Shown here: positions 2,750 through 31,186 of the stretch, piece by piece
Layout: every line of letters begins with the position of its first letter
Numbering within the stretch: the stretch's first letter is position 1
From: an uncultured Desulfobacterales bacterium
GTDB taxonomy: Bacteria; Desulfobacterota; Desulfobacteria; Desulfobacterales; C00003060
Direction: 5' to 3'
Assembly (NCBI GenBank): GCA_964502365.1
Contig: CAZCWQ010000001.1
Span: forward strand, 8,053 to 72,052
Length of the DNA: 64,000 bases
The notes under the pieces: generated by a model
What the model saw: the letters and a program-made list of their open reading frames with translations, nothing else
Database searches by the model: none
Told to the model about the DNA's origin: nothing
Program-made: the position numbers and the translations under genes

Positions 2750-2855
2750 CGGATCCTACATAATGTTTTATACTAACGTGGTACCCTCTTGCCCCCAGGT
2801 ATGACTTTTAGCGGTGGTAGATGGTGAGAACTGACAATTGAGGAAATTGAGTACC

Positions 2856-14691: not shown

Positions 14692-15093
14692 TTAACTCCC
14701 TTCTGGTTTCAGCAATGGCTGAAAGACCCTGCAATCTCTGCACATCTTCATCTTCTTCTTCCAGTTTGTTTGGACTGTTCCATCACAGATGGTCCCATTA
14801 ATAAACCAGCACAACCGACCGGCTCGAAATTCCCATGCCGGGCATCTTTGTCTGTGTTCCTGAGAACATTTTTTTATGACCCAGCACGACTTCTGTCGCT
14901 TCATCGCCCATGGCTTTCTTGAAACCAGGAAGAAGACCTGTCTTTCCACATGGGCCGGCACTGATCGCCATCCTTGCTCGTAGCTTCGGACAGCCTTTAC
15001 AGAAGTCCCCAGGAGTTGGGCCATTTCTTCTTGCGTCTTATTAAGCTTTTTTCGGAAATCTAGAAATTCTTTGCTGTCCACAGAAATATTCAA
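14692..15093 (-). CDS. XRE-type HTH regulator with C-terminal Cys-rich (two-CW-like) domain
   Basis: HTH is KTQEEMAQLLGTSVKAVRSYEQG. The C-terminus is CWVIKKC...CPAW...CWFINGTIC...CRDC. Its stop TAA lies 1 nt before the metY ATG. The start was moved to TTG 15093 (or GTG 15081) because the longer ORF runs through the promoter/operator repeats. Confidence 0.6.
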   Translation of the reverse strand: MNISVDSKEFLDFRKKLNKTQEEMAQLLGTSVKAVRSYEQGWRSVPAHVERQVFFLVSRKPWAMKRQKSCWVIKKCSQEHRQRCPAWEFRAGRLCWFINGTICDGTVQTNWKKKMKMCRDCRVFQPLLKPEGS

Positions 15094-15109
15094 AAGACCC
15101 TTGGTATTT

Positions 15110-15164
15110 GGTACCACAATGTGGCACCTATGTACCAAGTACCACAATGTGGCACCAGGGTCAA
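15110..15164 (-). promoter_or_regulatory. promoter with two tandem operator-like imperfect palindromes
   Basis: GGTACCACAATGTGGCACC at 15110-15128 and GTACCACAATGTGGCACC at 15139-15156, period 28 bp. Read on the minus strand they follow TTGACC (15159-15164), so they occupy the spacer and the region just downstream. Confidence 0.55.
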
Positions 15165-15238
15165 CAATAAAAAAACCGCCTTTACGTGACTGTGGACAAG
15201 TTGATGGGAAAGCGACCCCGCCCAAGGGTTTCTAATTT

Positions 15239-15490
15239 CTAGGCTGCATCCTTCTCCTGGTTACACCATTTCCTATACTTGCATGGAAACTCACCACAAG
15301 ACTTACCCGGTTTGTCAAAACAGTCTAACTGCCCTGTACTCAATTGTTTTCTGCGAATTATAGGAGTAATCACTCTTCTAAAGCATGAATCACATAGTGA
15401 TGACGAGACAGTGCCTGGGCCCCAACAGCGGGAGCAGTCTTTTTCCCACTCTTTTGAACAGTTAAGGCACTTTACACGCAGCTTGTTCAT
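15239..15490 (-). CDS. small Cys-rich hypothetical protein
   Basis: 83 aa with CLNC, CSRC, CDSC and DCF...C...C.YRKWC motifs. No family name recalled. Confidence 0.4.
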   Translation of the reverse strand: MNKLRVKCLNCSKEWEKDCSRCWGPGTVSSSLCDSCFRRVITPIIRRKQLSTGQLDCFDKPGKSCGEFPCKYRKWCNQEKDAA

Positions 15491-15854: not shown

Positions 15855-16892
15855 TCAACGGGTCTGGAATCTAATGGAGAGGCCGATTTCAACCCTTCTG
15901 TTTTTTGCGCGACCCTCATAGGTGTCGTTGGATGCGATGGGCGACGTCTCTCCTTTCCCGTTGGCAGTGATGAGGTCCTTCCGTATCCCCTTGCTAACCA
16001 GATAGTCCTTTACAGACGCAGCTCTTCTCTTTGAGAGCGCCAGGTTGTCTTCTGCGGGCCCAAGGTCGTCTGTATGCCCTTCGAGATGAATCTTGCCAAC
16101 GGGAATCTGGTTCAACAATGCGCAAGCCGTGTCGAGGGATGGGAGGCACATATTCAGGATTCTATCGCTATTGGCTCGAAAAAGGGTATAAGAAATGTAT
16201 GGTCTAACCAGGCCATAAAAGGCATCGGTTAACCTCGTCACAGCCGTTTGATGGTCTTTTTCTGAAACCAAGTATATGTGTTCCCAGGCCGTTAATAGGT
16301 GTCTTAGGGCCTCCTTGTTCAGTTTTTCGTGGCGGGAAAGATCTCTATTGAATTCAGTGCCGAAAGCATTAAGGCCTGATATGTCCTCTTGTTTGCCAAG
16401 CCTATCAACGAGTTGGTGTATGAGCAGGTTTCGTTTCTGCACAAGGAATTCGCCGGCATAGAGATTAAGAAAAAAAAAGTTCGGATCTTCCCTCGAAACT
16501 TCTTCCAACCCTTTTGAGATAAGCTTGTATGCTCCGTCGAGGTCTCCCTTTCGCACGAGTCTGTGTAGCTTCCCATTTAAAGTCTCGGATTTCTCGTCTG
16601 GGGCCTGTTCACTTGAAAGAGATGCTGCGGCTAAGCTGGGATTTGATTCCATCGTCTCAAGGCCGTCTTCCTCGTTCTCCCATGAACTGGAATTCCAACC
16701 GTCTTCTTGGGGACCAAATCCTAAAGGGCCGGCAGTGTCGTGTTCTGCAAAAGTAAGGGCAGTTAGGAATGGGTCAACTTCAGGTGGGCTGTCCAGGCCT
16801 TCTTCCTGGATTGTTCCAAGACACTTGACAGGGACAGACATAAGAAAAACAAAAAATAGGGCGATTACGGGTTTTCCCATCATCCAGTTCAT
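15855..16892 (-). CDS. OmpA-family protein (C-terminal peptidoglycan-binding domain)
   Basis: Signal peptide present. The C-terminal GHTDDLGPAEDNLALSKRRAASVKDYL...NRRVEI is a canonical OmpA-like domain. Confidence 0.8.
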   Translation of the reverse strand: MNWMMGKPVIALFFVFLMSVPVKCLGTIQEEGLDSPPEVDPFLTALTFAEHDTAGPLGFGPQEDGWNSSSWENEEDGLETMESNPSLAAASLSSEQAPDEKSETLNGKLHRLVRKGDLDGAYKLISKGLEEVSREDPNFFFLNLYAGEFLVQKRNLLIHQLVDRLGKQEDISGLNAFGTEFNRDLSRHEKLNKEALRHLLTAWEHIYLVSEKDHQTAVTRLTDAFYGLVRPYISYTLFRANSDRILNMCLPSLDTACALLNQIPVGKIHLEGHTDDLGPAEDNLALSKRRAASVKDYLVSKGIRKDLITANGKGETSPIASNDTYEGRAKNRRVEIGLSIRFQTR

Positions 16893-16985
16893 TGAAGGAT
16901 CGATAAAACTTCGACGGCATCTGCCACCGCGCCAACCCTAAAACCATGCATTTCCAAACAGGGAGAGGAAACACAGGCACCAAGC

Positions 16986-17909
16986 TCATTCAAAGGCGGC
17001 ATATACTTGAATTCTGCTATTGTTTGTATCAGCAACAAAAACTTCCCCTTTGTTGTTGATGCACAGTTGAGACGGATAGTTCAAGAGCCCTTCTTTCCAT
17101 CCCATGTTGGTCTGCCGGCCAAGAAAAGAGCCGTTCTGGCCAAGGGTGACTATACTGCTTCCGTTTCTATCCACCAGATAAATCCGTCCCCTGGTGTCTG
17201 TGTCCATTGATGTGGGAAAGCGTACATATTCCTTCAAGTTCTGGGTCAAGGGAGAAAACTTCTCGGAACCTTTGAGGGCCAAAAACACCGTGGCGTTTAC
17301 ACTGTCAATTAACAATACATCCCCTTTAGGATCTACTGTCACGTCTGACAGAAACCCATAGTTTTCCGGAAAATCAAGCTGTTTCTGATATGCCCCTTCA
17401 GGGTCAAGGACAAGGACCCGAGAAGAAAATATGTCCAAGACGTATATCTGGTCTTTCTCGTCGATCTCAAAGCTTCTTGGAACAATGGACGCCGGCGAAG
17501 GTGTCCCTGTGGGCTCAAGATAATCTTTAAACTCGCCTTGTGGCGACAGGCGAACAATGCGGCGCTGCCTGCCGTCGAGGACGTAGATCTCGTTCTTTGA
17601 ATTCATCTTGACCATGATGGGATAGACCACCTCAGGCACCTTGATCGGTACTGTTTGGCCTCCCAATGTTTTGTCCTCAAAGGTGTACTGTAAGAGTCGA
17701 CCGTTTCCCGTGTCGGCCACAATCAGGAGGCCCTCGTCGTTACAAACCACCCCCTCCGGCTGCCTGAGGCCCACCCCTTTGTCATCGGCATATATGGACG
17801 CAACATGCCTGAACTTCACCATCTGGCCACAGAAGGACTTCACCGGCCAGAACACTAAAACCGTTAACGCCATGATTACTGCAAGTATTCTGTCTAAGCC
17901 TTTGCTCAT
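16986..17909 (-). CDS. NHL-repeat beta-propeller protein
   Basis: Start chosen at ATG 17909 (MSKGLDRILAVIMALTVLVF signal), 4 nt after the upstream cytochrome stop. Repeated ...YV.D..N.R(I/L)... NHL-type blades. Confidence 0.75.
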   Translation of the reverse strand: MSKGLDRILAVIMALTVLVFWPVKSFCGQMVKFRHVASIYADDKGVGLRQPEGVVCNDEGLLIVADTGNGRLLQYTFEDKTLGGQTVPIKVPEVVYPIMVKMNSKNEIYVLDGRQRRIVRLSPQGEFKDYLEPTGTPSPASIVPRSFEIDEKDQIYVLDIFSSRVLVLDPEGAYQKQLDFPENYGFLSDVTVDPKGDVLLIDSVNATVFLALKGSEKFSPLTQNLKEYVRFPTSMDTDTRGRIYLVDRNGSSIVTLGQNGSFLGRQTNMGWKEGLLNYPSQLCINNKGEVFVADTNNSRIQVYAAFE

Positions 17910-17913
17910 CTTG

Positions 17914-19230
17914 TTATCTCTTCCGTTCCGTGTGGCACTGGATGCACAGGTCATAGACAGTGGCAAATGGCATCATCGCAGGCTTGTTCCCTGTGCCGCA
18001 AGCCTTATGACAGCTTAGACACTCCACAGTGAGGTTCCTGTTCCTTTGGTCTACAACCTTTTCACCAATCGGATGTGTTGAGTGGGTCTGCCATTCGTGG
18101 CAACGGCCGCACAGCTCTATGCTGATAGACTCTTGTGAAATGAGCAGGACGTTATCTGAGGCGTGCGGAGAATGGCAGGCGATGCAATTGCCCGTCTTTA
18201 CGGGTTCGCACAACTTCGGGTTCTTGGGATTACTTATTGACCATTTTTGAAGTTCCACTGTATCGGAATGACACCTCCCGCAAAGATCGACAATGGCCCT
18301 CTTTAAGAGTTTCCCCTGCTTGGTGGCGTGGGGCCCATGACAATTCAAACATCCAGTCTGATCCACCAAAGGCCAGTGTGTGCGATTCTGGTTGAGCGTC
18401 TTATCAATCAGTTTCTTGTGACACTGCATGCACAACTCAGTGCCCTGCCATTTGGTCTTCAACGGGTTGGCCGAAGTTGGTTCTTGGTGGCATGCACTAC
18501 ACTGCTGTTTGCTCACAGGAACATGGGCATCGGCGAACACCATGCCCCTATCATTGGAGCCATGGGGGTCATGGCAGGAGCCACAGTTCGTCTTGGCCAC
18601 AGGGTAATTCATGTGCTTCCTGGAAAAAGAAGGTTTGCCCGTGTCATGGCACTCCACACAGAGGGAAGGGGCATCCTTCTTCAATAAGAAATCAGATTTC
18701 TCTGAGGCGTGCGGGTTATGGCAATTGAGGCACCCCTTTTTCGTGTTCAAGGGTTTATGTTTGAACCGGTTCTTCTTGACTTGGTTCCCCATGTCCTGGT
18801 GGCAATCAAAGCAAAGCTCGTTGCCTGTGTTGACCAGCTGAAACTGGTTGTCCGATCCGTGGGGATCGTGGCATTTGTTGCACTTGCCTTCTGCAACAAC
18901 CATATGGACCTTTTGTGCCTTCTCAGGCATCACGTCCTTATGGCAGTTGGAGCAAAGCCTCGTCGGCCCTGCGGTCAACAAGCCCTTGTGAGAAGATGTA
19001 TGAGGCTCATGGCATGCGGAACACTCGCCCCTTTTCATCAGAGGATGTACATAAGGGCTCTTAATCGTTTTTTGAAAGGTCTCATGACATTTCAGGCATA
19101 GTTGCCCTTTGGCCCCCAGCTTGAGTTTGTGTTTGCCCTCTGGGCGAGCACGAGTCGCCATAAGCAAAGTGCTCATGAGGCAGACCAGCAAGACAGTGGC
19201 GCGGCGCAGGTCAAGTTTCAATGGTCTCAT
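17914..19230 (-). CDS. multiheme c-type cytochrome, 16 CXXCH motifs
   Basis: I counted 16 CXXCH motifs. The start at 19230 forms an ATGA overlap with the upstream 26-heme gene stop, followed by a signal/TM segment. Confidence 0.9.
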   Translation of the reverse strand: MRPLKLDLRRATVLLVCLMSTLLMATRARPEGKHKLKLGAKGQLCLKCHETFQKTIKSPYVHPLMKRGECSACHEPHTSSHKGLLTAGPTRLCSNCHKDVMPEKAQKVHMVVAEGKCNKCHDPHGSDNQFQLVNTGNELCFDCHQDMGNQVKKNRFKHKPLNTKKGCLNCHNPHASEKSDFLLKKDAPSLCVECHDTGKPSFSRKHMNYPVAKTNCGSCHDPHGSNDRGMVFADAHVPVSKQQCSACHQEPTSANPLKTKWQGTELCMQCHKKLIDKTLNQNRTHWPLVDQTGCLNCHGPHATKQGKLLKRAIVDLCGRCHSDTVELQKWSISNPKNPKLCEPVKTGNCIACHSPHASDNVLLISQESISIELCGRCHEWQTHSTHPIGEKVVDQRNRNLTVECLSCHKACGTGNKPAMMPFATVYDLCIQCHTERKR

Positions 19231-21329
19231 GGTTTTTCCACTATGTGGCAGTCTACACATATATTGTCGGCAAAAGGCTTATGCATCTCGTCCTTGAAGA
19301 ATTTGGGATACCTTGAAACGTGAGGGGTGTGGCATTTTCTGCAATCCATCACCTTTGCGTCAATACGGATGTGGGCCTCGCCAAAAGAATCCGCGTCATA
19401 GTCGTGGCATTTTCCGCACAAGGGTTGAATCGGTTCCGCGATGAGGGCTAGTTCTGATGAAACATGGGGCAGGTGACATATCTGGCAGTTTTTCAGATCA
19501 GATGGCGCATGCACATAATACTTTATTTCAACGGCCTCGGGAGCAGTATCGCTCTCGCGCGCGGGCACCTCGCCTGGAGGAGTCTGCGCCTCTTTGTCTT
19601 CCGGGTACATTTTCGCTTTCAGTTCGGTATGGCAAGACAGGCACAAGTCAGGAAATGTGGCCAAGAGAAGGCTGTCGAGGTTTGCCTTATGAGGGCTGTG
19701 ACAGGCCGTACATTCCCCAGCCACCACGGGGCCATGTTGACTCTTGACGTCTGCTATTTCTTTGCCGGGGTCTGTGCCGTGGCATGAACGACACAGAAAG
19801 CTTTGCCTATTCACGATCATGCCCGGGATGTTACTTGCGTGGGCATCATGGCATCTTAGGCACTTTCCATCTCTGAAGTATTTGTGGCTGGAACCTCGCA
19901 CCTGCTTCTGCATAAGCTCACCGTGGCAGTTGGCACACAGTTGGGAGGAGGTGGCATCGGCTATCAGCATCTTTTCTCGGTCTGATCCGTGGGAACGATG
20001 GCAGGCGTCACAACTGCCATTGACTACAGGCTTATGGGTATTTGTTTTTGCGAACCGTATTTCAGCATCAAAATGACAGGCGTAACAAACCGTGTCCATC
20101 CTGTCCTTTAACATGCCCTTGAAATTCGACCCGTGGGAATTGTGGCAGGCATTACACATCCTGTCTGAAAAGGGTTGATGTGGGTTGCGGGTTCTCAGAT
20201 CTCTTTTTGTATTCTCATGACACGAGAAACACAGGTCTTCCACTTTTGCAATCAGGAGCTTCTCGTTCCTGGCGGCATGCCTCACATGGCATGAAAGGCA
20301 TCCTCTGTCGCTTGTGAGCGCTTGATGAGAGACCGCCACGGGGACGGCTTTATCGGCATGGCAACCGGCACAGAGTTGGTTGCCCTTCCTGGCAAGGAGG
20401 GTTGGATTTTCTGAGGTGTGGGGATTATGGCAAGAAATACATCGTCCCTTCTGAAAGGGCGAATGCTCGATATGCCCCCCTCCCTTAAGATCTGATGCCT
20501 TATGGCACTCGTGGCAAAGGTCGCTGCCCTTCATGGGCGTCTCAAAGGGTTTCTCGGACGAAGACGGGTTGTGGCATTTTATGCACTCAATGCTGAGAAC
20601 GGGGGGATGGGCACTGGTTCTCAACAGTCTGGGCTGTGATGATGAGTGGGGATTGTGGCAGTTGACACAGAGTGATACCTGTACAGGATAGTCGCCATGT
20701 GCTTTCTTGAATGATCTTTGACCATAGTCATGGCAGGATATGCAAAGGGCCGACTCTTTGTTCTTGAGGAGGTAAGGCTCGTCGGAACTGTGCGACAGGT
20801 GACAGACTTGACAAGGCTCTGTCTGCAATATCTTATGTACCACTTTCTTTTCGTAGCCTTCCCTCTTGTGACACTGGTAGCAAAGGTCGCGGCCTTGGGC
20901 CTTTAAGAGATGGCTTGCCTCGGACGCATGGGGGTCATGGCAGTTGGTGCATTTTCCTCTCTCGAGTCCTGTGTGCACCACGGACTTGTCCATGCCCATT
21001 TGCTTTTTTGTGTGGCACGGATAGCACAACCCCTTTCCCTCTTTCTTAAGTAGCAGCTTTGGGATCTTACCGTGTCTAAGGTGGCAATCTTCGCACTTAT
21101 TCTCCTTCACAACGGAATGAACGTTTTTCATTCCCAGATATTTAGCAGCAAAATCAGTGTGACACTCTACACACGCCTTACGCTCAAACTTGCGCGGTTG
21201 TCGCGAACGGACCGGCGCGCATGCCGAAAAGAAATAGAAAATCCCCGCCAGGACAAGTAGTACTCCCGCCACGACATATTTTCGCTTGCCAAGCATCAAG
21301 ACTCCGCGATCTCTCATTGCCATGGTCAT
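19227..21329 (-). CDS. giant multiheme c-type cytochrome, 26 CXXCH motifs
   Basis: I counted 26 CXXCH motifs in 700 aa. It has an N-terminal hydrophobic anchor ending FFSAC. Confidence 0.9.
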   Translation of the reverse strand: MTMAMRDRGVLMLGKRKYVVAGVLLVLAGIFYFFSACAPVRSRQPRKFERKACVECHTDFAAKYLGMKNVHSVVKENKCEDCHLRHGKIPKLLLKKEGKGLCYPCHTKKQMGMDKSVVHTGLERGKCTNCHDPHASEASHLLKAQGRDLCYQCHKREGYEKKVVHKILQTEPCQVCHLSHSSDEPYLLKNKESALCISCHDYGQRSFKKAHGDYPVQVSLCVNCHNPHSSSQPRLLRTSAHPPVLSIECIKCHNPSSSEKPFETPMKGSDLCHECHKASDLKGGGHIEHSPFQKGRCISCHNPHTSENPTLLARKGNQLCAGCHADKAVPVAVSHQALTSDRGCLSCHVRHAARNEKLLIAKVEDLCFSCHENTKRDLRTRNPHQPFSDRMCNACHNSHGSNFKGMLKDRMDTVCYACHFDAEIRFAKTNTHKPVVNGSCDACHRSHGSDREKMLIADATSSQLCANCHGELMQKQVRGSSHKYFRDGKCLRCHDAHASNIPGMIVNRQSFLCRSCHGTDPGKEIADVKSQHGPVVAGECTACHSPHKANLDSLLLATFPDLCLSCHTELKAKMYPEDKEAQTPPGEVPARESDTAPEAVEIKYYVHAPSDLKNCQICHLPHVSSELALIAEPIQPLCGKCHDYDADSFGEAHIRIDAKVMDCRKCHTPHVSRYPKFFKDEMHKPFADNICVDCHIVEKP

Positions 21330-21344
21330 TACGACTTTACAATC

Positions 21345-23267
21345 CTACGGTTGAAGATCTTCTCGGTGAATCTCTACCGGATAGTACGCTCTGAGTTCGT
21401 CTGCCCAGTGCTCGATCGACGCCTTCATCTTTTCCTTATAAAGGCCCTCTGCAATTTCTTCTTTCACATCTTCAAACGGTTTTGCCTTGGGGGAAATCAC
21501 GGCGGACACGAACAAGACATAGTACAGGCCATCAGGGCTCGCATACAGCCTGAAATCTCCAGAATCGGCCCCTGATACGGCCTTTTGGACTGCTTCGGGC
21601 AATCCCTCCAGGGTCAGCAGCGTCCCATCGAACGGTAGAACCCCGGCCGTGTCCTTGTCAACCTGCCCCGCTGCATTGGAACTCAACCAGTCAAAGTCTG
21701 TGCCTTTGTTCAGCTTCTCCATGGCATCCACGGCCCGACTTCTTTCTTTGAACACGACACTGCGTATTCTCATCATCTGCGGGAACGTGTACTCCTGAAG
21801 ATTGTCGTCATAGCGTTGTTTCAGTTCCTTCTCAGTGAGCTTGATGTCAGGGACAACGACTTTGTTCATGAAGGCGGCAAAGATGACCGAGTTTTCATAC
21901 TCCTTGACTCTCTGTTTATAAATCTCCGTCTCATGAATCCCCTGCTTCAGGGCCTCTTTTTCCAGTACCCGCTTTTGAAGTAGCTCTTCTAAGACCTCGC
22001 CCTTTCTCTTGTTCACTTTCTCCGTTTCGATGGCTCTCTCAACCCCGTGGTAAAATCTCGCTTTCAAACCATTGCTCAAGTCTGCAACGGTAATCGGCGT
22101 TTCTCCTTTTATCTCGGCAACAACTCGCGTGTCTTCCAAGAGGTCTTCGAATCCCGGTTTCTTGGATTCATAGTCAAGGGCATCAAAGATCTTGGCGTTT
22201 ATCTTCACATATTTCTTCTTCAAACCCTCGTAGTAGGCGTTGCCGGCACGAAGTTTCTCCTGTTTAAGGGCTTGGTGCCTTGCCTTTTGCCTTGCCTCCT
22301 GGTTCTCGTCTTTTGGGTAGCGAATACCTTCAAGGCGAAAGAGGATAAACCCTTTGTTCCCAAGTGAAAGGATAGGACTCACAGAGCCGATCTCCATTTT
22401 CGAGACAACCTGGGCCACCGGCAGCGTCAGATCCTTGGCCTTCAAATATCCTGCCTCTTGGTCTCCTTTCGCCACGCTTCGGGCAACGGCGCTGTCAACC
22501 ACCGTGTCAAAGCTCTTGCCTGCCTTTATCTCTTCCTGAATTTGCTTTGCTTCATGTTCCTTTTCAACCGTCACCGACCTTAGCTTCCATTCCTTCACTA
22601 TTTCCTTGTAGAACCGCTGCACTTCCTGCTCATCGGCCTTCACGTCTTTCATTTGCCGTTCAAGCAGAAGCTCGATAAGGCTCTTTACCGCATAGTCAGC
22701 CACAGCGCTTTTCACTTCCGGCAACTCGCCAAGGCCCATCTCTCTGGCCTCAAGCCCAATAAGTTTCATATTGATCATGCGCTTCATAATCGCGGAATAG
22801 TCTATCCGACCTGCCTCTCTTTCCTCCTGCCTTGCCGAGTGTGAGGAGGCAATGGCCCTGTTGAACTCTTCCAAAGTAATTGGTTCTCCGTCCACTGTTG
22901 CCACGACCTCCTTGTTGTCAACCAGGGGAAGTTCCTTGGCTTCGGCAAAGGCCAATGCTGAAGCCAGTAGCAAGCAAGTGGCAACGCACGCGAGCACAGC
23001 CCCTACCCATTGGACGGGACAGCCGGTCTGGTTGCTTTCATGTGTTAAGACGGAGGATAAGCGTCGGTAAAACTCCTTTCGAAATAGCAAGGCATTTGGC
23101 GACATGGTGGGCTGGGTCGGCCTGGCGAAAGCCCTGCCGCCAAGACCAACAGGAAGAACAGGCTTTGCATAGGGTTCCGGAGCAAGCATGTTGAAATGAG
23201 ACGATACCCAGGCTTTTCTTAATAACGGGATGCCCGCCGATTCAGCATTCATCGCATTGTGGCACAC
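21345..23267 (-). CDS. SurA/PpiD-like peptidyl-prolyl isomerase (PpiC/parvulin type)
   Basis: Has a TM/signal segment, a SurA-N-like VATVDGEPITLEEFNRAI and parvulin-like regions. The start is uncertain (GTG 23267, ATG 23252 or ATG 23105). Confidence 0.65.
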   Translation of the reverse strand: MCHNAMNAESAGIPLLRKAWVSSHFNMLAPEPYAKPVLPVGLGGRAFARPTQPTMSPNALLFRKEFYRRLSSVLTHESNQTGCPVQWVGAVLACVATCLLLASALAFAEAKELPLVDNKEVVATVDGEPITLEEFNRAIASSHSARQEEREAGRIDYSAIMKRMINMKLIGLEAREMGLGELPEVKSAVADYAVKSLIELLLERQMKDVKADEQEVQRFYKEIVKEWKLRSVTVEKEHEAKQIQEEIKAGKSFDTVVDSAVARSVAKGDQEAGYLKAKDLTLPVAQVVSKMEIGSVSPILSLGNKGFILFRLEGIRYPKDENQEARQKARHQALKQEKLRAGNAYYEGLKKKYVKINAKIFDALDYESKKPGFEDLLEDTRVVAEIKGETPITVADLSNGLKARFYHGVERAIETEKVNKRKGEVLEELLQKRVLEKEALKQGIHETEIYKQRVKEYENSVIFAAFMNKVVVPDIKLTEKELKQRYDDNLQEYTFPQMMRIRSVVFKERSRAVDAMEKLNKGTDFDWLSSNAAGQVDKDTAGVLPFDGTLLTLEGLPEAVQKAVSGADSGDFRLYASPDGLYYVLFVSAVISPKAKPFEDVKEEIAEGLYKEKMKASIEHWADELRAYYPVEIHREDLQP

Positions 23268-23335
23268 TCAGGTTCCCTTTGCAACTGCAAAACTGCCGGC
23301 TGCCCACAGGGCTCCAACAAGGACAAAAACATTTG

Positions 23336-23698
23336 CTAAAATACCTGTTTTAAAAAAGCCTTGATGTCAGACAGGACAAAGGGCTTGGGGATAAAAACGG
23401 CTCCCTTTTCTTCGATAGTCCTTTTTATTTCATCACCAACAGAACTTGCCGAAATAATGGCGACATTAGTTTCAGGGGATATCTGATGTATTTCGTCCAT
23501 GACATCCAGGCCACTCACATCGGGCAGTCCCAGATCGAGGAAACACACCCAGTAGGATGAGAAGTGCATCTCAATGATGGCATCTCTGCCCGTTGAGGCG
23601 GTTTTGATCTCTCCTTCAAAACCGCACAATTTACGAAGTGCGCCTGACATGCCGGACAGAATAGATGGCTCATCGTCAACGATTAGAATCTTTCTCAT
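23336..23698 (-). CDS. single-domain response regulator (REC only)
   Basis: ILIVDDEPSIL...FLDLGLPDVSG...KPF receiver-domain signature, 120 aa. Confidence 0.85.
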   Translation of the reverse strand: MRKILIVDDEPSILSGMSGALRKLCGFEGEIKTASTGRDAIIEMHFSSYWVCFLDLGLPDVSGLDVMDEIHQISPETNVAIISASSVGDEIKRTIEEKGAVFIPKPFVLSDIKAFLKQVF

Positions 23699-23769: not shown

Positions 23770-23784
23770 GCAATTACCATACCA
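23770..23784 (-). promoter_or_regulatory. candidate sigma-54 promoter for the REC-PPIase-cytochrome operon
   Basis: The reverse complement reads TGGTATGGTAATTGC, with GG-N10-GC at canonical spacing. It lies about 70 nt upstream of the REC start. Confidence 0.5.
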
Positions 23785-24062: not shown

Positions 24063-24078
24063 TGGCATGTAGATTGCT
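24063..24078 (+). promoter_or_regulatory. sigma-54 promoter for the NHL-omcS operon
   Basis: TGGCATGTAGATTGCT matches TGGCAC-N5-TTGCW at every conserved position except one. It lies 140 nt upstream of the NHL gene. Confidence 0.65.
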
Positions 24079-24217: not shown

Positions 24218-25201
24218 ATGAGAAACCGACAAAATAAGATTGAATTACTCATTGGGCTGCGCCTTAAACGCATGATCGTTGTATGCCTTGCGAGTACAAT
24301 TTTCTGCGCAGGCATGTTCACTGGCGCGTCAGCACAAGTGGAACCGGTCTTTTTATACACTCTGTCCAACTTTGATGGTCCCATACCGTACAACTGGGCG
24401 AACATTTATTTTGACGAACAGAGAAACGAGATTTATGTGGTGGACAGGCGTGAGGGGGACATAAGGATATTCGATCAAAACGGCATGGAAATCCACCGTT
24501 TTGGTGACGATGGAAGGCTGGGCACTCTCATCGATGTTGCCGTTCGAAACGATGGAAACATCTTTGTTGTGTCCAGACAGGGGTTGAAGCCCTCAGTCCT
24601 TCTCTGTGATTTCAGAGGAGAGCCTCTGTCAGCACTCGAGTTCAGGAACTTCCCTCCCGATTTTTCGGTTTTTTCACCCGACCGCATCGCTTACCTGAAA
24701 GAACGGCTCTACCTGCTTGACACCATCTCCTTGAGGATAGCGATTACAGAAACCAACGGCCTTTTCCGGAACGGTTATGACGTCGTGTCTCTCCTGGGCC
24801 TCGAAGAAAAAAAGAGGGGAGAGGCGGACATCGGCGGATTCAGCGTTGACCGGGAAGGAAACATGCTCTTTACCATCCCGGTCCTCTTTTCAGCCTACAT
24901 ACTCTCTCCGGACGGGCAGATACAGGGCTTTGGCGGGCCCGGAAGCGCTCCTGGGGGGTTTGGCGTTGTAGGGGATATCGTGGCAGATGAAAGAGGCTAT
25001 TACTATGTGGCAGACCGGTTGAAATGTGTTGTCGATATTTTTGACAAGGATTTCCAGTTTCAGTCCGAGTTCGGGCATCGCGGATTCAGGCCGGAGAATC
25101 TTATAGGTCCCAAAAATCTGGTTCTGGATGCCGAGGGCAGGCTCTATGTGTCTCAGCTCGCGAGCAGAGGGGTCAGTGTTTTTAGGATAACCTATGACTA
25201 A
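24218..25201 (+). CDS. NHL-repeat beta-propeller protein
   Basis: Signal peptide present. Repeated blades such as YVVDRREGDIRIFD, YYYVADRLKCVVDIFD and LYVSQLASRGVSVF. Confidence 0.75.
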   Translation: MRNRQNKIELLIGLRLKRMIVVCLASTIFCAGMFTGASAQVEPVFLYTLSNFDGPIPYNWANIYFDEQRNEIYVVDRREGDIRIFDQNGMEIHRFGDDGRLGTLIDVAVRNDGNIFVVSRQGLKPSVLLCDFRGEPLSALEFRNFPPDFSVFSPDRIAYLKERLYLLDTISLRIAITETNGLFRNGYDVVSLLGLEEKKRGEADIGGFSVDREGNMLFTIPVLFSAYILSPDGQIQGFGGPGSAPGGFGVVGDIVADERGYYYVADRLKCVVDIFDKDFQFQSEFGHRGFRPENLIGPKNLVLDAEGRLYVSQLASRGVSVFRITYD

Positions 25202-25415
25202 TCTCAAACAACAGAGGCGCATAATTCTAAAGAGTAAGGAGGTGATCACAAGTAAGAAGTGATTAGCGTTTTCAGGGTGACCTAATGGGTACGGGCGAAC
25301 CACGAAGAACAGAGGCACATTGATTCGAAAGATGCGGAGGGGATTAGAAACATAAAGTGAAGAGATGGAAGATGAAGGGTCACAAAATCAAACATGAAAA
25401 GGAGGAAACTGAAAA

Positions 25416-26600
25416 ATGAAAACTACTAAGTTACTGGTTATCATGGCAGCAGTCCTGATAGCCGTTGGGTTAGGTGGCTCTGCCATGGCTTTCCATGACG
25501 GCGGTGTTGCACACTGCGACGGCTGCCACTCAATGCACCAGCAGGTGGACGGCGCGTCCAACCTTAGCGGGAATGCAAACAATAACCTGACCACAGGTTC
25601 AGACCCAAGCTCCACCTGTCTCAACTGCCATGCAGGAAGTGGAAGCTACCATATTCTGAGCGCAGATGGCACCAATTTTTACCCAGGTGGTGACTTCTAC
25701 TGGGTCACGGCAGGGTTATGGACGGTGGACCACGACACGGACAGCACGGACTCAAATCGCGGCCACAACATCACGGCCTTGGACTTTGGCCTTGGGGACG
25801 ATGGCAGACTGAATGTGGCTCCTGGTGGTACCTACCCCGATACCCAGCTGGGATGTAACAGCTGCCATGATCCTCACGCTAAAGTGGGCGGGGCTGGCGT
25901 AGGCCCCGGCGCACCAAACCCTGCGCCGATTTCAGGCTCCGGGTCATACGGTGACCCAGACCCTACGGATGGCTCTATCCTGGGTAACTATAGACTCCTT
26001 GGCGGTATCGGTTACGACGGTGGTCAGGGTGCAAGCGCCAACTTCGCCAATGCTGCTCCCATCGCTACGGCGCCAGCCTTTGGCTTTGCCCCCGGTAGTG
26101 TCGGCTTGACTGAGCGCGACGATAATCACGTAGACTACGGGTCAGGCATGTCGGGATGGTGTGGAAACTGTCATACCAGCTTCTTCTCAGGCGCCCACGT
26201 GCACCCGGTTGACACGGCTGCAACCCTGGGCGTGGAGGCCACTAATTACAATCACTACATCTCCACAGGCAACTTTGATACTTCAAGAACCGCCACAAGC
26301 GCAACCTACCTGGCGCTGGTGCCTTTTGAGAGAGGCACACCGGACAGAACACTCCTGTTGCCGACCAATACGGACGGTCCTGATGTTAATTCGCAGGTCA
26401 TGTGTCTGACATGCCACAGGGCTCATGCCTCACCATTCAAGCACATTGCCAGGTGGGATCTGAATACGGAGCTGCTGGCAGAGTCCAATGCAAACGCACC
26501 AGTGGCAGTGCAAGCCGTGCAATACTACGAAAGAGACATTGCAACCGACTTCGGCCCATGGCAAAGATCGCTGTGCAACAAGTGCCACGTGCAAGACTAG
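25416..26600 (+). CDS. omcS: OmcS-family hexaheme nanowire-type cytochrome
   Basis: Strong RBS (AAAGGAGGAAA), signal peptide ...AMA|FHDGGVAHCDGCHSMH and six CXXCH motifs. Blocks PGGDFYWV, APGGTYP..LGCNSCHDPH, YRLLGG, SGMSGWCGNCH, CLTCHRAHAS and a C-terminal CNKCHVQD parallel G. sulfurreducens OmcS as I recall its sequence. Confidence 0.85.
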   Translation: MKTTKLLVIMAAVLIAVGLGGSAMAFHDGGVAHCDGCHSMHQQVDGASNLSGNANNNLTTGSDPSSTCLNCHAGSGSYHILSADGTNFYPGGDFYWVTAGLWTVDHDTDSTDSNRGHNITALDFGLGDDGRLNVAPGGTYPDTQLGCNSCHDPHAKVGGAGVGPGAPNPAPISGSGSYGDPDPTDGSILGNYRLLGGIGYDGGQGASANFANAAPIATAPAFGFAPGSVGLTERDDNHVDYGSGMSGWCGNCHTSFFSGAHVHPVDTAATLGVEATNYNHYISTGNFDTSRTATSATYLALVPFERGTPDRTLLLPTNTDGPDVNSQVMCLTCHRAHASPFKHIARWDLNTELLAESNANAPVAVQAVQYYERDIATDFGPWQRSLCNKCHVQD

Positions 26601-26626
26601 TCTAAACTGTCGTGTAACCCTATTTT

Positions 26627-26660
26627 AAGGCTGAGGGCCCATGCCCTCAGCCTTTTTTTT
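26627..26660 (+). terminator. strong rho-independent terminator after omcS-like gene
   Basis: AAGGCTGAGGGC-CCAT-GCCCTCAGCCTT forms a 12-bp perfect stem followed by T6-8. Confidence 0.85.
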
Positions 26661-26810
26661 GACGGATTGACACCTTTGTGCTTAAAGAGGACAGAAGGGC
26701 CCTGATATAACCACCCAACAGCCCAGAAAGATTGTTCATATGGCAAGTGCGTGATACATAGTGGCACCTCCATCAGAGTGGAAGTAGTCGCGTCATGTGA
26801 GGAACGGCCT

Positions 26811-28223
26811 ATGATGGCACCAAGGATCTTTCCCCTCCTTCTTCTCCTCTCGTTTGTTTTGGGCAGCTGTTTTCCGCAAGGCTCCCTACATAACGTACGC
26901 TCAATGGACGAGGGTCACGTTATTTTGTATCTACAGCCTCTATCCCAGGAGGCATACAGGCTCCGGTTCGTTATCGGCGAGATTTCAGCCATCCGGGACG
27001 ACGGCACTCTGATTCCCCTCTTTCTGTCAATCAATGAGATAAAGGGAACAGGTCTTGTGGCTATCCAGAAACGGCTGGCATCAGGGGGATTGCCTCCCGG
27101 TTCATACACAGGGCTGTCCATCAGGATCAAGGACGCATTTGTGCAGGGGGAAGAAGGCGAATTTGCTTTGTTAGTCCCTGAAGAACCCACCAGGGTTGAC
27201 AGTCTGTTCAACGTGACCCGGAGAAAAACAGCCATCCTGTTTCTTTCCTTCCATGTTGCAGGAGCCATAACCGATCAGGTCCGTTTTACACCTGCTTTTT
27301 CCCTGAAACCCTCTGCCAGAGAGCTCCTCAATCTTACAGGATACGTCAGTGATCCTGCCTCCGACAGCCTCTTGGTCTTTAACAAGAAGACGATGCAGGT
27401 GGTCGGTGCCATATCAACCGGCACGGCACCCAAGGGGATCGCCCTCGACAGAAATAGGGGAAGGGCTTACGTGGCTGCTTATGAAGACGATACCGTGGAA
27501 GTCATCGATGTCATCGAAGGGGAGATTATTGGCAGGATACCACTTAACTTTGGTGATGGGCCGCTGGAGCTCGCGGTGGCCCCAGATGGAAGAACCCTCG
27601 TGTCAGTGAACCATGACTCCAATACGGTGAGTATCATTGATACGGTCTCTTTGTTTGAGATCAGGAGGGTCAGGGTTGCTGAAGGGCCCTCTTCGGCCGT
27701 GGTGGATCCTCCAGGCCTGAAAGCCTACGTTATGAGCCCTCTGGCCAATTCGGTCTCTGTGGTGGATCTGACGCAAAGTGAGGCTTCCGCAACTATAGCA
27801 GTCGAAGGCGGCCCTCTTAGAGGTGCTTTCAATCGCGAGGGCGATACGCTTTATGTTGTGAGCAGGGATTCACCCTACCTGACGGTCATAGATGCCTCAC
27901 GGTTGGTCATCACACAGAGGATTTTCATAGGCATTGGGGCCCTGTCCATAAAAGTGGACACGCAGACCGATCTCATCCTTGTGGGCATGAAGGCGGGGGG
28001 GAACATCCTGGTGATTGACGCTTTCGCTTCCATGGCCATCGATGCCATCGTACTGGAAGGCAATGCCGCTTACCTGACTATCGACGACGAAGAGAACAGT
28101 CTGTTTGTGGCCCTTCCGGACATCAAGTCTCTTCAGAAGGTCAATCTCACGAGTAAGAAGATTACGGGCGCCATAGACGTGGGCGAGGAGGCTTATGCAG
28201 TTGTCGTCGTGCGTGAGAGATAG
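26811..28223 (+). CDS. lipoprotein with DUF4382-like N-terminal domain and YVTN-type beta-propeller
   Basis: Start MMAPRIFPLLLLLSFVLGSC has a lipobox. The N-terminal half resembles the DUF4382 protein at 56673. The C-terminal half has repeated P.G(I/L)A(L/V)....(A/L)YV....D..V.VID YVTN-like blades. Confidence 0.7.
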   Translation: MMAPRIFPLLLLLSFVLGSCFPQGSLHNVRSMDEGHVILYLQPLSQEAYRLRFVIGEISAIRDDGTLIPLFLSINEIKGTGLVAIQKRLASGGLPPGSYTGLSIRIKDAFVQGEEGEFALLVPEEPTRVDSLFNVTRRKTAILFLSFHVAGAITDQVRFTPAFSLKPSARELLNLTGYVSDPASDSLLVFNKKTMQVVGAISTGTAPKGIALDRNRGRAYVAAYEDDTVEVIDVIEGEIIGRIPLNFGDGPLELAVAPDGRTLVSVNHDSNTVSIIDTVSLFEIRRVRVAEGPSSAVVDPPGLKAYVMSPLANSVSVVDLTQSEASATIAVEGGPLRGAFNREGDTLYVVSRDSPYLTVIDASRLVITQRIFIGIGALSIKVDTQTDLILVGMKAGGNILVIDAFASMAIDAIVLEGNAAYLTIDDEENSLFVALPDIKSLQKVNLTSKKITGAIDVGEEAYAVVVVRER

Positions 28224-28226
28224 CCG

Positions 28227-30401
28227 ATGAATGCGGTCCGTTCGCCAGCTGTGTGCCTGTTTTCGATTATCGTTATCTCCAGTGCCCTTTGGCCACCAAA
28301 CATTTGGGCCGAAGGGATCAACTTCCGTAGTGAATTCACCTACAGAGATTCCGACACCAAAACCACGAACAAGGTCACCGGCGAAGTGACCGAGAGTGAG
28401 TACTCAGCATTTAGGCAGTGGTACAACCTGGACCTATTCAGGACCATTTATCCCTACCTGACGTTAAGGGGCGGAAGCATTCTTGAGCTTAACGATTCTA
28501 TGTCCTCTTCTCAAGACACAGAAACCAAGACGGAGGAACAAACCCTTCGTCCATTCGCAGAAATCAACCTGAACAATCCGATTTACAAGGCTGGAATCGG
28601 ATACCGCGGGACCCAAATAGAAAGAGATACAACAGGGATTCCCACCACAAAGGACCTGAGAGACGAATTCAGTACCCTTTTCGGGTGGAGGCCTACGGAT
28701 TTCCCCGAGATGAACGTTCGCTATACCCATACCCATACTTATGACCATCCGGAGACCGTGGATACCATCGATAAACTGCTTACCTATGATGCCCGATATA
28801 CCGCATGGGAAGAACTTCGGATGAGCTATCTCTATATCCGAAATGAGAGACAAGAGCTTATCGACCCTTCCGAGACCTTGAGGCAAACGCATACCGGCAG
28901 GGTCGACTATTCACACAGTTTTTTCGGAAAACGCCTCTCTATGGGAACGGGTTACAGAATTCGTCATGACACTTTGGAGTTTCCCACATTGGCGACTTTG
29001 GAGTCTCCAGTGTTGCGCTCAGTAGGACTTTCGGCACTTGACGACACCCCCACCGACGGACCGGCCCTTGATCCAAATCTTGGCCTCATAGACGGGGATG
29101 TTGCCACGTCAGCCGGTCTGGATATCGGGTTGGCTGGCGATGAAACGACCCTGACAAACCTCGGGCTCGATTTTGGATTTCCCGTCTCTATGGATAAGCT
29201 GTATGTTTGGGTGAGCAGGCGTCTTTCCTCATCGGTCTCCAATGCTTTTTCCTGGTCTGTTTATACCAGCCCGGACAATACCGACGTGAGCACATGGTCG
29301 CTTGTGGCTACAGTTTCTCCTGCCTCGTTTGGGGCTCTTGACAATCGTTTTGAGATATCCGTTCCTGCGGTAAATACGCGCTTTATCAAGCTTGCAGTGA
29401 GGCCACTGTCTCCCATCGTGCCGGACGCTGCCAACTTTTCTAATATCTTTATTACAGAGATACAGGCGTTCAGCACGCAGTCAGGGGTGTCGTTGCAGAC
29501 GAAAGACACTACTGTGGACCACGACTACAACTTCAACCTGACGGGCAGGCTCAGCACGCACACCGTACTCGGCTATAATCTGTATTACAGCCTCCAGGAG
29601 CGGGACCCATCTGCTGAAAAAAGAACGCGCCTTTCTAATGACATCTTTCTTAAGCATACCTTCAACGAAATCTTTTCCGCCAGCACAAGTGTGTCACAAA
29701 CAGACACGAAGCTGACGGACCAGGAAACTCACACGTACACGTATGCCGCTTCGCTCAATGCCGACCATCTGGACACCTTCGGACAGACGCTGACGTACAG
29801 CGGCACGGATGAAACCCAAGACAATGATTCGGGCGATACGAATTCCGTCTTCCTTCGCAATAATGCAAAATTGTATAAGGGTTGGAGCGCCTTCTTCGAT
29901 GTGGGATACAGTTGGAACAAACCTTTGAACTCGGCCCGGACAACCTCCACAATCATAAGATCAGGGACAGACATAGAACCGAACGAAAAGCTTAACATCA
30001 ATATGAACTACTCCGTTACTGACACAAAACAAGCGGAGGAGGACGGGAGAGACACGTCCAGATCTTCACTGGATCTGCAAGCCTTCTTTCTGCCCTGTAC
30101 AACGTTGTCCCTTTTTGCCAGATTGAGCGTGCAGGACAGGGGGGGCTCCAGAACCACGCTGCAGGACTATTCCGTCAGCTGGTCACCTTTTCCTGACGGT
30201 ACCCTACAGTTTCTTCTCGGGTATACCGAGACCCTTAGGCCGGAGGACGAACAAAAGGACAGGACCATAAGCCCGAGTCTGAAATGGACCATAGGAAGGC
30301 ACATCCTCGCGGATATGTCCTACACCATTGCCACAAGCGAGACCGAGTTGCAGACAATCGATTCGAATAGTCTCAATATCAATGTGAAGCTCATTTTTTA
30401 G
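28227..30401 (+). CDS. predicted outer-membrane beta-barrel protein with internal discoidin (F5/8 type C)-like domain
   Basis: Signal peptide (...NIWAEG). Alternating-hydrophobic, Y/T/S-rich strands flank the insert, and the C-terminus is ...NINVKLIF with an aromatic last residue. The central ~150 aa reads GLIDGD...WSVYTSPDN...RFIKLAVRP...FITEIQAF. Confidence 0.6.
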   Translation: MNAVRSPAVCLFSIIVISSALWPPNIWAEGINFRSEFTYRDSDTKTTNKVTGEVTESEYSAFRQWYNLDLFRTIYPYLTLRGGSILELNDSMSSSQDTETKTEEQTLRPFAEINLNNPIYKAGIGYRGTQIERDTTGIPTTKDLRDEFSTLFGWRPTDFPEMNVRYTHTHTYDHPETVDTIDKLLTYDARYTAWEELRMSYLYIRNERQELIDPSETLRQTHTGRVDYSHSFFGKRLSMGTGYRIRHDTLEFPTLATLESPVLRSVGLSALDDTPTDGPALDPNLGLIDGDVATSAGLDIGLAGDETTLTNLGLDFGFPVSMDKLYVWVSRRLSSSVSNAFSWSVYTSPDNTDVSTWSLVATVSPASFGALDNRFEISVPAVNTRFIKLAVRPLSPIVPDAANFSNIFITEIQAFSTQSGVSLQTKDTTVDHDYNFNLTGRLSTHTVLGYNLYYSLQERDPSAEKRTRLSNDIFLKHTFNEIFSASTSVSQTDTKLTDQETHTYTYAASLNADHLDTFGQTLTYSGTDETQDNDSGDTNSVFLRNNAKLYKGWSAFFDVGYSWNKPLNSARTTSTIIRSGTDIEPNEKLNINMNYSVTDTKQAEEDGRDTSRSSLDLQAFFLPCTTLSLFARLSVQDRGGSRTTLQDYSVSWSPFPDGTLQFLLGYTETLRPEDEQKDRTISPSLKWTIGRHILADMSYTIATSETELQTIDSNSLNINVKLIF

Positions 30402-30592
30402 GTTACCGTGAAGGTCGTGACAAGTGGGCGCTCGAAACCGTCTGTGGCCGTTCCCAGACGACATCCGGTCCGTGGCAAGTGGGTTCGCAAGTTGACTGGC
30501 ATGGCCAAATGGTTTATATGGTGTTAAAAAGATAAGAGATTCACAGAAGACAAAATAGCGATACATCACCCTCTAAGGCAAGGAATTCTGCC

Positions 30593-31186
30593 ATGATTGG
30601 ATCGAAACGCGGTGTGAGTCTAATGAGATGTGTCTTGCCTTGCCTTTATCTTTCCTTGACCGCCTGTGCCGCCCCCCCTCCGCCCACCACGTATCATGAC
30701 CCGGATATGGATTTTGCGTCATTGCGCAGCGTTGCAGTCATGCCTTTTGAGAATCTCTCGCGAGACAAGCTTGCGGCGGAAAGGGTGCGAGACACCTTCA
30801 TTAACAACCTCTTGGCTACCACTTCGCTTTATGTCATCCCTCCCGGCGAGGTCGCACGGGGCAGCACAAGATTAGCGCTTGATAAGCCTGCTACGCCATC
30901 CGCGGAGGACATCTTAAAACTGGCCGTTATCATCAAGGCAGACGCTGTCATCACCGGCGTTGTCAGGGAGTACGGAGAGATAAGATCCGGGACCACATCT
31001 GCCAATGTTATATCCATCAGCGTGCAAATGTATGAGGTGCAAACGGGAACGGTGGTGTGGGCAGCATCGTCTTCGCAGGGCGGGATAAGCACATGGGATC
31101 GACTTTTTGGGGGCGGAGGCAAGCCGATGAACGATGTCACCGAAGCGGCTGTGGATGATATTATCAATAAACTCTTCAGCAAGTAA
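30593..31186 (+). CDS. CsgG/LpoB/DUF799-like lipoprotein
   Basis: Lipobox LSLTAC. SVAVMPFENLS...ADAVITGVV pattern is typical of the TolB-N/CsgG/LpoB-like fold family. Confidence 0.6.
   Translation: MIGSKRGVSLMRCVLPCLYLSLTACAAPPPPTTYHDPDMDFASLRSVAVMPFENLSRDKLAAERVRDTFINNLLATTSLYVIPPGEVARGSTRLALDKPATPSAEDILKLAVIIKADAVITGVVREYGEIRSGTTSANVISISVQMYEVQTGTVVWAASSSQGGISTWDRLFGGGGKPMNDVTEAAVDDIINKLFSK

Follow-up and report, generated by a model that had tools for sequence, protein, structure and literature searches.

The osc (OmcS-companion) cluster of Geobacter sulfurreducens, which spans GSU2504-GSU2493 (Shen et al. 2025, Cell Chem Biol 32:239, via its citations in PMC13194489 and PMC12977616), is the described system closest to the locus considered here, a group of six genes located at positions 15855-23698 of a 64,000-nucleotide stretch of DNA from an uncultured Desulfobacterales bacterium (this whole stretch being referred to as the window). 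In the literature, an eight-gene block (GSU2500-GSU2493) is linked to maturation and secretion of the OmcS nanowire, GSU2495 being oscI (specifying a product of ~70 kDa with 26 hemes), GSU2494 being oscJ and GSU2501 being oscC. Through secondary citations in the two citing papers, the channel-like OscEFG proteins are assigned to secretion and OscD to morphology, and in Geobacter genomes the eight-gene block is stated to be always accompanied by an OmcS-like hexaheme cytochrome. The OmcE clusters of Desulfuromonadia, as presented in a preprint (bioRxiv 10.1101/2025.10.22.684050), minimally comprise two multiheme cytochromes, two beta-propeller lipoproteins, a nanowire subunit and a large beta-barrel.

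The six genes at 15855-23698 most probably represent the oscH-oscI-oscJ-oscK-like half of an OmcS-type nanowire (osc) cluster, the other half of which (24218-32297) is located on the opposite strand across a putative divergent promoter. The locus is a further example of a known system, its variations being the split layout, a pair of sigma-54 motifs, and the addition of a receiver gene and an OmpA-domain gene. This identification is carried by correspondences with the osc cluster: a gene for an OmcS-type hexaheme subunit is present in the cluster (25416-26600); the eight-gene companion block agrees in gene count, order and known properties, being here split between two strands; and the OscI-like protein of 700 amino acids (aa) contains 26 CxxCH heme-binding motifs, to be compared with the ~70 kDa product of GSU2495.

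Layout and gene order of the osc-like locus

The genes of the minus-strand half are given below, with coordinates referring to the window.

15855..16892, minus strand: OmpA-C-domain protein with a non-barrel N-terminal region, 93 nt after the NHL gene
16986..17909, minus strand: NHL six-bladed beta-propeller of 307 aa in the OscK position, starting 4 nt after the 16-heme stop
17914..19230, minus strand: OscJ-like 16-heme c-type cytochrome of 438 aa with a cleavable signal peptide
19227..21329, minus strand: OscI-like 26-heme c-type cytochrome of 700 aa, MtrA-like wire
21345..23267, minus strand: OscH-like SurA/PEB4-type periplasmic chaperone composed of two tandem modules, each consisting of a helical chaperone part and a parvulin-like part
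23336..23698, minus strand: stand-alone CheY-like receiver of 120 aa, first gene of the minus-strand unit

An earlier note on this DNA had described six co-oriented open reading frames (ORFs) in this region, all of which are present, and its domain calls (OmpA, NHL, two cytochromes, a SurA-like peptidyl-prolyl isomerase (PPIase) and a receiver) were each matched in Pfam, with Paired_CXXCH being detected in the two giant cytochromes (E 9e-84 and 5.5e-134). Its heme counts of 16 and 26 are exact by CxxCH motif count, and the junction sequences contain both the ATGA shared by the 26-heme stop and the 16-heme start (19227-19230) and the 4-nt spacer (CAAG) between the 16-heme stop and the NHL ATG at 17909. 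The "tiny gaps" it had attributed to the whole group are found between the four core genes, i.e. PPIase, 26-heme, 16-heme and NHL (15-48 nt, -4 nt and 4 nt), but not between the NHL and OmpA-domain genes (93 nt), nor between the receiver and PPIase genes, where the distance of 68-230 nt is a range set by three candidate PPIase starts. The starts adopted here for the 16-heme and NHL genes are those of the public calls (438 and 307 aa) on a contig (L084) which carries an identical OmpA-domain protein and the same gene order. The view of this operon as a self-contained unit had to be abandoned, since the other osc half sits across the divergent promoter, and the note's pointer to the Geobacter GSU2492-2496 region was right, as this region includes oscI and oscJ.

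Lack of conserved adjacency in related genomes, which the same note had named as a refuting outcome, was checked for. A genome scan (one genome per species, with an alignment of six 26-heme homologues as query) returned 80 loci, in which ORFs were called and compared by BLAST with the window proteins; distant homologues may fall under the thresholds, so that the counts given here are lower bounds. Forty-five of these loci carry an orthologue of the 26-heme protein or a 42-heme fusion. Of the 39 loci with room for it, at least 30 have the PPIase gene as the immediate upstream neighbor of the 26-heme gene; the 16-heme gene is its next neighbor downstream in at least 37 of the 38 unfused loci, and at least 31 of 40 loci have an NHL gene behind the two cytochrome genes. 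The neighborhood is strongly kept, so that the note is not refuted on this point, and because the order PPIase-26-heme-16-heme-NHL recurs in dozens of genomes of at least seven phyla, it represents more than a chance arrangement.

These four genes form the end of a ten-gene order (NHL-like, OmcS-like, YncE-propeller, barrel, LpoB-like, PelC-like, PPIase, 26-heme, 16-heme, NHL) which Geobacter sp. AOG1 (L008) and members of at least six further phyla have in collinear form, among them Nitrospirota, Acidobacteriota, Anaeromyxobacter, Desulfocapsa, Desulfobulbaceae and others. Protein by protein, the AOG1 locus shares 29-54% identity with the window, and its first gene matches OmcS with E 3e-106. 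Wherever the flanks allow this to be judged, the remainder of the OmcS cluster accompanies the four core genes in every case. The closest relatives (L002, L082 and L083) show the same split into two head-to-head halves, and in one locus with a fused cytochrome (L028) the PPIase gene is detached from the latter and sits behind the PelC-like gene. G. sulfurreducens was absent among the 80 loci kept and the top 120 protein matches. A record titled Promethearchaeota archaeon metagenome-assembled genome (MAG) (L056) contains a 26-heme/15-heme/NHL/hexaheme/propeller block with a layout nearly identical to that of a bacterial locus (L029), which is probably due to a binning error and not to archaeal possession.

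The plus-strand half is composed of the following genes.

24218..25201, plus strand: divergent NHL-type propeller of 327 aa, first gene of the plus-strand half
25416..26600, plus strand: OmcS homologue of the six-heme nanowire-subunit type, 394 aa (phmmer)
26751-28223, plus strand: YncE-like propeller lipoprotein, OscD/E/F/G-position set (Pfam, lipobox)
28227-30401, plus strand: outer-membrane beta-barrel of 724 aa with a signal peptide and a C-terminal ...VKLIF beta-signal
30593-31186, plus strand: GNA1162/LpoB-like lipoprotein (Pfam, lipobox)
31134-32297, plus strand: double PelC-like lipoprotein in the OscG position (lipobox; profile versus PelC)

The product of 25416-26600 matches OmcS (6EF8_A) over its full length (phmmer, E 8.2e-63), and its mature N-terminus (FH..C..CH.MH), the equivalent of His16 and all six CxxCH motifs align with those of OmcS. 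In OmcS filament structures the N-terminal His16 ligates a heme of the neighboring subunit. Conservation of this residue is therefore compatible with polymerization of the OmcS homologue. The product of 24218-25201 gave no single-sequence Pfam match; its family profile is that of an NHL propeller (hhalign 97.6% versus the operon NHL; TRIM71 NHL in the PDB, E 3.6e-34), and the gene is syntenic in L002, L008, L011, L038 and other loci. The pairing of a giant cytochrome with an NHL propeller, which the earlier note had counted three times in the window, stands for 42184/43180 (NHL E 4.4e-31; 20 CxxCH motifs) and needs correction for 24218/25416, where the propeller is of NHL type by profile but its neighbor at 25416-26600 is not a giant cytochrome, being the six-heme OmcS homologue. 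A second OmcS homologue (46024-47196, plus strand), which has 41% identity to the first (E 9e-96) and the same FHxGGVxxCxGCH N-terminus, is located directly after the NHL gene (42184-43170) and the 20-heme gene (43180-45678), a 5-heme gene being present at 41225-42169. Since this second homologue follows the 42184/43180 pair, both NHL/giant-cytochrome pairs of the window adjoin a gene for an OmcS-like subunit.

The family profile of the 724-aa barrel matched neither MtrB nor any other relative in the PDB. The lipoprotein in the OscG position contains two PelC-like repeats (profile versus PelC 9H80_C, E 7e-6). PelC is the dodecameric funnel of the Pel polysaccharide exporter, and the barrel together with the LpoB-like and PelC-like proteins resembles a PelBC-style export funnel reused for a cytochrome filament.

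Taken as a whole, the window has in common with the osc cluster the hexaheme cytochrome, the propeller OscD, OscEFG, the chaperone OscH, OscI, the second large cytochrome OscJ and a terminal gene in the GSU2493 position. It differs from the G. sulfurreducens cluster in being split into two head-to-head operons with sigma-54-type promoters, in having a CheY-like receiver gene before the oscH-like gene and an OmpA-domain gene after the NHL gene, and in having one OmcS-like gene at the locus (with a second OmcS paralogue 20 kb away) and no omcT/oscC trio. With the OmcE clusters, in so far as these are described in the accessible part of the preprint, it shares two cytochromes, propellers (here two NHL and one YncE-like), a filament subunit (here OmcS-like) and a barrel, whereas OmcE is a tetraheme and OmcS a hexaheme cytochrome, and neither a SurA-like chaperone nor a 26/16-heme pair is described in that part.

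The giant cytochromes and the SurA-type chaperone

The 26-heme protein (689 aa if the alternative start at 21296 is used) has 26 CxxCH motifs, all of which are invariant in 11 of its homologues together with 26 further His residues, which therefore indicates that all of its hemes are bis-His ligated. The 16 CxxCH motifs of the 16-heme protein are invariant across 38 homologues, and the heme density amounts to about one heme per 24 residues. The N-terminus of the 26-heme protein carries a lipobox-like FSAC, common to the closest relatives but not to every orthologue. Its only significant match in the PDB, both in sequence and in fold, is MtrA (6R2Q_A, a chain which carries the wrong molecule name in the PDB), with a sequence E of 7e-19 and a Foldseek E of 3.9e-7 (33% identity over 271 columns). 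NCBIfam holds no dedicated models for the proteins of the cluster. The model TIGR03508 (DmsE/MtrA decaheme) gave 277.6 bits in 6 stretches, its family cut-off being passed only via these 6 repeated partial matches; membership of the DmsE/MtrA decaheme family was ruled out, given 26 and 16 CxxCH motifs versus ten hemes in one wire.

Judged by their sequences, both cytochromes are MtrA-like, peptide-minimized, bis-His heme wires. They resemble Shewanella MtrA/DmsE (6R2Q chain A; TIGR03508) in their modular build of paired CXXCH motifs and in bis-His ligation, and differ from MtrA in having 26 and 16 hemes (42 where fused) in place of 10, and in being encoded with an NHL propeller and a SurA-like chaperone instead of an MtrC-type surface cytochrome.

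In six loci (L028, L033, L036, L037, L046 and L049) a single chain of 1015-1254 aa with 42 CxxCH motifs is encoded, corresponding to the 26-heme and 16-heme proteins combined. Its N-terminal part is collinear with about residues 50-700 of the 26-heme protein and its C-terminal part with residues ~44-433 of the 16-heme protein, without the signal peptide of the latter. Because such 42-heme fusions exist, the two cytochromes are expected to act as one physical unit (a Rosetta-stone argument). The fusions occur in MAGs of delta-proteobacteria, Eisenbacteria, Acidobacteria and Thermoanaerobaculia, and chains of this type (~1060 aa) are also found, among the database matches with a named source, in MAGs of Zixibacteria, Krumholzibacteria and the FCB group. 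Heme motifs 22 and 23 of the 26-heme protein are spaced by 52 residues (window 20580-20735; residues ~567-615), with spacings of 22-28 residues elsewhere in this protein and in fused orthologues; the additional residues (including PEDKEAQTPPGEVPARESDTAPEAVE) are rich in acidic side chains and proline and were modeled by AlphaFold 2 with very low confidence.

The PPIase gene gave Pfam matches to Rotamase_2, Rotamase and SurA_N_2/3 (Rotamase_2 plus SurA_N, E 1.8e-24). Its start is uncertain, candidates being a GTG at 23267, an ATG at 23189 (the choice of the gene callers, 614 aa) and an ATG at 23105 (586 aa), and the signal peptide ends in ...ALAFA/EA. The N and C halves of the protein align with each other (E 1e-6), indicating an internal duplication, and its AlphaFold 2 model (predicted local distance difference test (pLDDT) score of 84) matches PEB4 (3RFW, TMt 0.65), SurA (1M5Y), HP0175 (5EZ1) and PrsA (4WO7). 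When aligned with HP0175, CBF2 and the archaeal parvulin CsPin, the first position of the catalytic dual-His motif is a Ser in both parvulin-like domains and the second position is a Tyr in the C-terminal one; the corresponding segment of the N-terminal domain, read by eye from the sequence, is GFILFRL and contains no His. The family consensus likewise is without the dual-His motif. Because the catalytic His pair is missing in both parvulin-like domains, the PPIase is predicted to be a SurA-type holdase and not an active isomerase.

This protein is similar to SurA, PEB4 (Cj0596), HP0175 and PrsA in being exported and in having a helical chaperone module wrapped round a parvulin fold. PEB4 and HP0175 are homodimers of one-module chains, whereas the window protein has two complete modules in one chain; it also differs from the SurA family in that its gene is tied to a cytochrome-nanowire cluster and is not that of a general outer-membrane-protein chaperone. 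OscH is said to be a prolyl-isomerase-containing chaperone which interacts with OmcS. PMC13194489 and PMC12977616, citing Shen et al. 2025, report that OscH acts in the folding of OmcS nanowires. In the papers covered here, we found no mention of the conserved block, the 42-heme fusions, the lost catalytic His or the clade-specific split, and a literature search combining NHL, multiheme cytochrome and peptidyl-prolyl retrieved no paper.

Promoter motifs, regulators and lineage-specific genes

Between the two halves, and directly beyond the plus-strand half, the following elements and candidate regulators were located.

23770..23784, minus strand: sigma-54-type -24/-12 promoter-like element (TGGTATGGTAATTGC), 72 nt upstream of the receiver ATG
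24063..24077, plus strand: second sigma-54-type -24/-12 element (TGGCATGTAGATTGC), facing the plus-strand half
32307-33701, minus strand: NtrC-type sigma-54 activator, candidate regulator (Pfam)
33698-35908, minus strand: PAS/HAMP histidine kinase, candidate regulator (Pfam)
35908-36888, minus strand: PhnD-like periplasmic binding protein, candidate regulator (Pfam)

The pattern TGGYAYN5TTGC has only two exact matches in the 64-kb window, both of them within the divergent spacer of 520 bp, where each is oriented towards its own operon, with a background rate of 0.025 per kb over 1.39 Mb of loci. The spacer of L082 contains motifs identical to the window pair, and that of L002 has variant motifs at the same two positions, the one of the minus half being located 76 nt before the PPIase gene (there being no receiver gene in this locus); one sigma-54 motif, equivalent to that of the plus-strand half, is present in L083, and one precedes the first gene of the collinear L038 cluster. 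Genes for sigma-54 activators are also found near the cluster in L002, L022, L049 and other loci. These motifs suggest that paired sigma-54-dependent promoters drive the two halves, and the activator, kinase and binding protein encoded at 32307-36888 would be the regulators of the cluster.

The receiver (Pfam Response_reg, E 5.9e-19) has D8, D9, D55, S83 and K105 all present and no output domain. It is the first minus-strand gene here, as the earlier note had said in placing it at the head of the operon, but this position is not conserved in relatives: the gene was found only in L082 (a relative with a 91%-identical PPIase), is absent from L002 and L083 despite their divergent layout, and no small receiver gene adjoins the cluster in any of the 45 orthologous loci. 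Because a search for a sigma-54 motif between the receiver and PPIase genes found none, the receiver gene looks like an insertion into the operon leader. The receiver is a lineage-specific addition.

At the other end of the minus-strand half, the NHL protein in the OscK position (Pfam NHL, E 1.1e-25) is followed by the OmpA-domain protein, which matches PF00691 with E 8.7e-18 (residues 238-332, profile positions 2-98 of 98) and has a canonical peptidoglycan-binding motif (TDDLG...NLALSKRRA...NRRVEI, with TDDLGPAEDNLALSKRRA...NRRVEI in the sequence). The gene was found in none of the 45 orthologous loci and follows NHL in a narrow clade only (L086, 70% identity; L087, 53%), and a full-length, 51%-identical homologue exists in an unrelated context (L085), beside a Tricorn-like/peptidase gene pair. 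The OmpA-domain gene is a clade-specific addition and not a conserved member of the osc cluster.

Between this gene and metY/metX are an 83-aa cysteine-rich ORF (15239-15490, minus strand) and an HTH_3/MqsA-antitoxin-like protein (14692-15225, minus strand); an 83-aa ORF followed by metY and metX is also seen behind the OmpA-domain gene in L084 and L087. In L085 a PhnD-like/histidine kinase/sigma-54 activator trio (1524-5247), as at 32307-36888 of the window, is located upstream of the OmpA-domain homologue, in a context that includes a Tricorn-like propeller and a large M1/M28 peptidase. The regulatory trio and the OmpA-domain gene may therefore travel together in one genomic neighborhood, independently of the osc cluster.

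Further genes are located beyond the trio. The minus-strand genes at 38091-38891, 38919-39674 and 39703-40944 encode, respectively, a 3-heme NapC/NirT-like protein, a membrane protein of the cytochrome b561 type and a 6-heme cytochrome, which together are a probable inner-membrane quinol oxidoreductase and a plausible electron entry point for the nanowire system; a 7-heme cytochrome gene (37078-38013, plus strand) lies near these quinol-oxidoreductase genes. An Rfam search of the whole window detected no RNA family.

Proposed electron path and competing explanations

In the mechanism that we propose, the intergenic region common to both halves would drive their joint expression, with the neighboring NtrC-type activator as the probable trigger, as suggested by the conserved -24/-12 motifs. 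The products, all of which carry export signals in their sequences, would act in the periplasm or at the outer membrane. There the tandem SurA/PEB4-like holdase may chaperone unfolded, heme-loaded cytochrome towards an outer-membrane channel, and the plus-strand half would supply the OmcS-like filament subunit, two propellers and the outer-membrane barrel with its lipoprotein funnel. The 26-heme lipoprotein and the 16-heme protein would work as one wire unit, most likely carrying electrons from inner-membrane quinol oxidases across the periplasm to the base of the OmcS filament, and the NHL propeller, in view of its conserved adjacency, could be a docking or scaffold partner of this wire. The OmpA-domain protein, optional and not conserved in the cluster, may serve as an anchor to peptidoglycan.

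A more specific version of this scheme is offered tentatively, as one that may well prove wrong. The 26-heme and 16-heme proteins, docked end to end in the manner of their covalent linkage in the 42-heme fusions, would form a static, MtrA-like wire of roughly 30 nm, which could span the entire periplasm. At the OscEFG-type channel, the NHL propellers would be the adaptors that connect this wire with the base of the OmcS filament, and all three cytochromes would have the OscH-like protein as their non-catalytic tandem holdase. MtrA holds 10 hemes over about 8 nm, and the length of ~30 nm is scaled from this MtrA size and not taken from the AlphaFold 2 model.

Several points weigh against this interpretation of the locus. 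The AlphaFold 2 model of the 26-heme protein is of moderate quality (pLDDT 67, predicted template modeling score 0.42), which leaves overall shape and length not established, and the parts ascribed to the 26- and 16-heme proteins as electron wires and to the NHL protein as their partner are predictions. Co-transcription is deduced from gene spacing and promoter motifs only: a generic scan detected promoter-like sites no more often than in shuffled sequence, weak terminator-like sites were in an excess without clear significance, and the NHL-OmpA spacer and the region downstream of the OmpA-domain gene fold no better than shuffles. Since omcS and omcT of G. sulfurreducens are reported to form their own transcriptional unit, the cluster may comprise more than one regulon. 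The GSU genes are probable orthologues, as judged via Geobacter sp. AOG1, heme counts, sizes and gene order, and the functions of the osc genes are given as in two citing papers.

The explanations which compete with an osc cluster disagree on what the giant cytochromes and the chaperone serve. In the model of the earlier note, which now appears unlikely, the six genes are an operon complete in itself, whose PPIase would be a foldase dedicated to the 26- and 16-heme cytochromes and whose OmpA-domain protein would tie their complex to peptidoglycan. This model would agree with the PPIase gene preceding the 26-heme gene without an intervening gene (at least 30 of 39 loci) and staying with the cytochrome pair, not with the OmcS gene, in the split clusters (the window, L002, L082 and L083), with the many conserved His-x-Pro motifs of the giant cytochromes, and with the peptidoglycan-binding motif of the OmpA domain and the NHL-OmpA adjacency kept in two relatives. 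However, the core genes are not seen apart from the OmcS cluster where flanks allow, as is also stated for Geobacter genomes in the citing papers; the PPIase gene is detached from the fused cytochrome in L028; OscH is reported, again in those papers, for OmcS folding; and both parvulin-like domains are without the catalytic His pair. A dedicated maturation factor of the two giant cytochromes found no specific support, OmcS being an equally possible client by synteny, which cannot separate the two kinds of client because all cluster genes always co-occur. The tether as part of the complex is not upheld either: the motif is present, yet all 45 orthologous loci lack the OmpA-domain gene, its 51%-identical homologue is located elsewhere, and the receiver is not conserved.

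The fact that the 26-heme protein has no significant match other than MtrA, in sequence or in fold, could also point to a porin-cytochrome conduit, in which the 26/16-heme wire threads the 724-aa barrel as MtrA does MtrB and touches the OmcS filament outside, the barrel being an electrical sheath and not (only) a secretion channel. A barrel of ~720 aa with a typical beta-signal is MtrB-like in size, and barrel and cytochromes always co-occur. We nevertheless regard such a conduit as quite unlikely: the barrel profile matches no MtrB or other PDB relative, three genes separate the barrel and cytochrome genes whereas known conduits have adjacent porin and cytochrome genes, 42 hemes are far above the need for crossing the outer membrane, and the PelC/LpoB funnel-like lipoprotein partners of the barrel fit the secretion role published for the "channel-like" OscEFG. 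The very high heme density with all-bis-His ligation, and the description of GSU2495 as periplasmic and responsive to electron-acceptor conditions, would suit a periplasmic electron store, i.e. a 42-electron capacitor keeping respiration going without contact between filament and acceptor, with no fixed wiring to the nanowire and with clustering with omcS reflecting co-regulation only. This we consider very unlikely, as it does not account for genes being strictly ordered and translationally coupled, for an NHL partner being conserved or for the 26+16-heme fusion recurring at one fixed junction, and as MtrA-type modules are linear wires.

With 15855-23698 understood as half of an osc cluster, what appeared to be an orphan giant-cytochrome operon is now readable as part of a complete OmcS-type nanowire locus, which predicts long-range extracellular electron transfer in this organism. 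If the wire and adaptor arrangement tentatively set out above is true, hemes would form an unbroken path that starts at the inner-membrane quinol oxidases and ends micrometres outside the cell, and no diffusible carriers would be involved in the periplasm.

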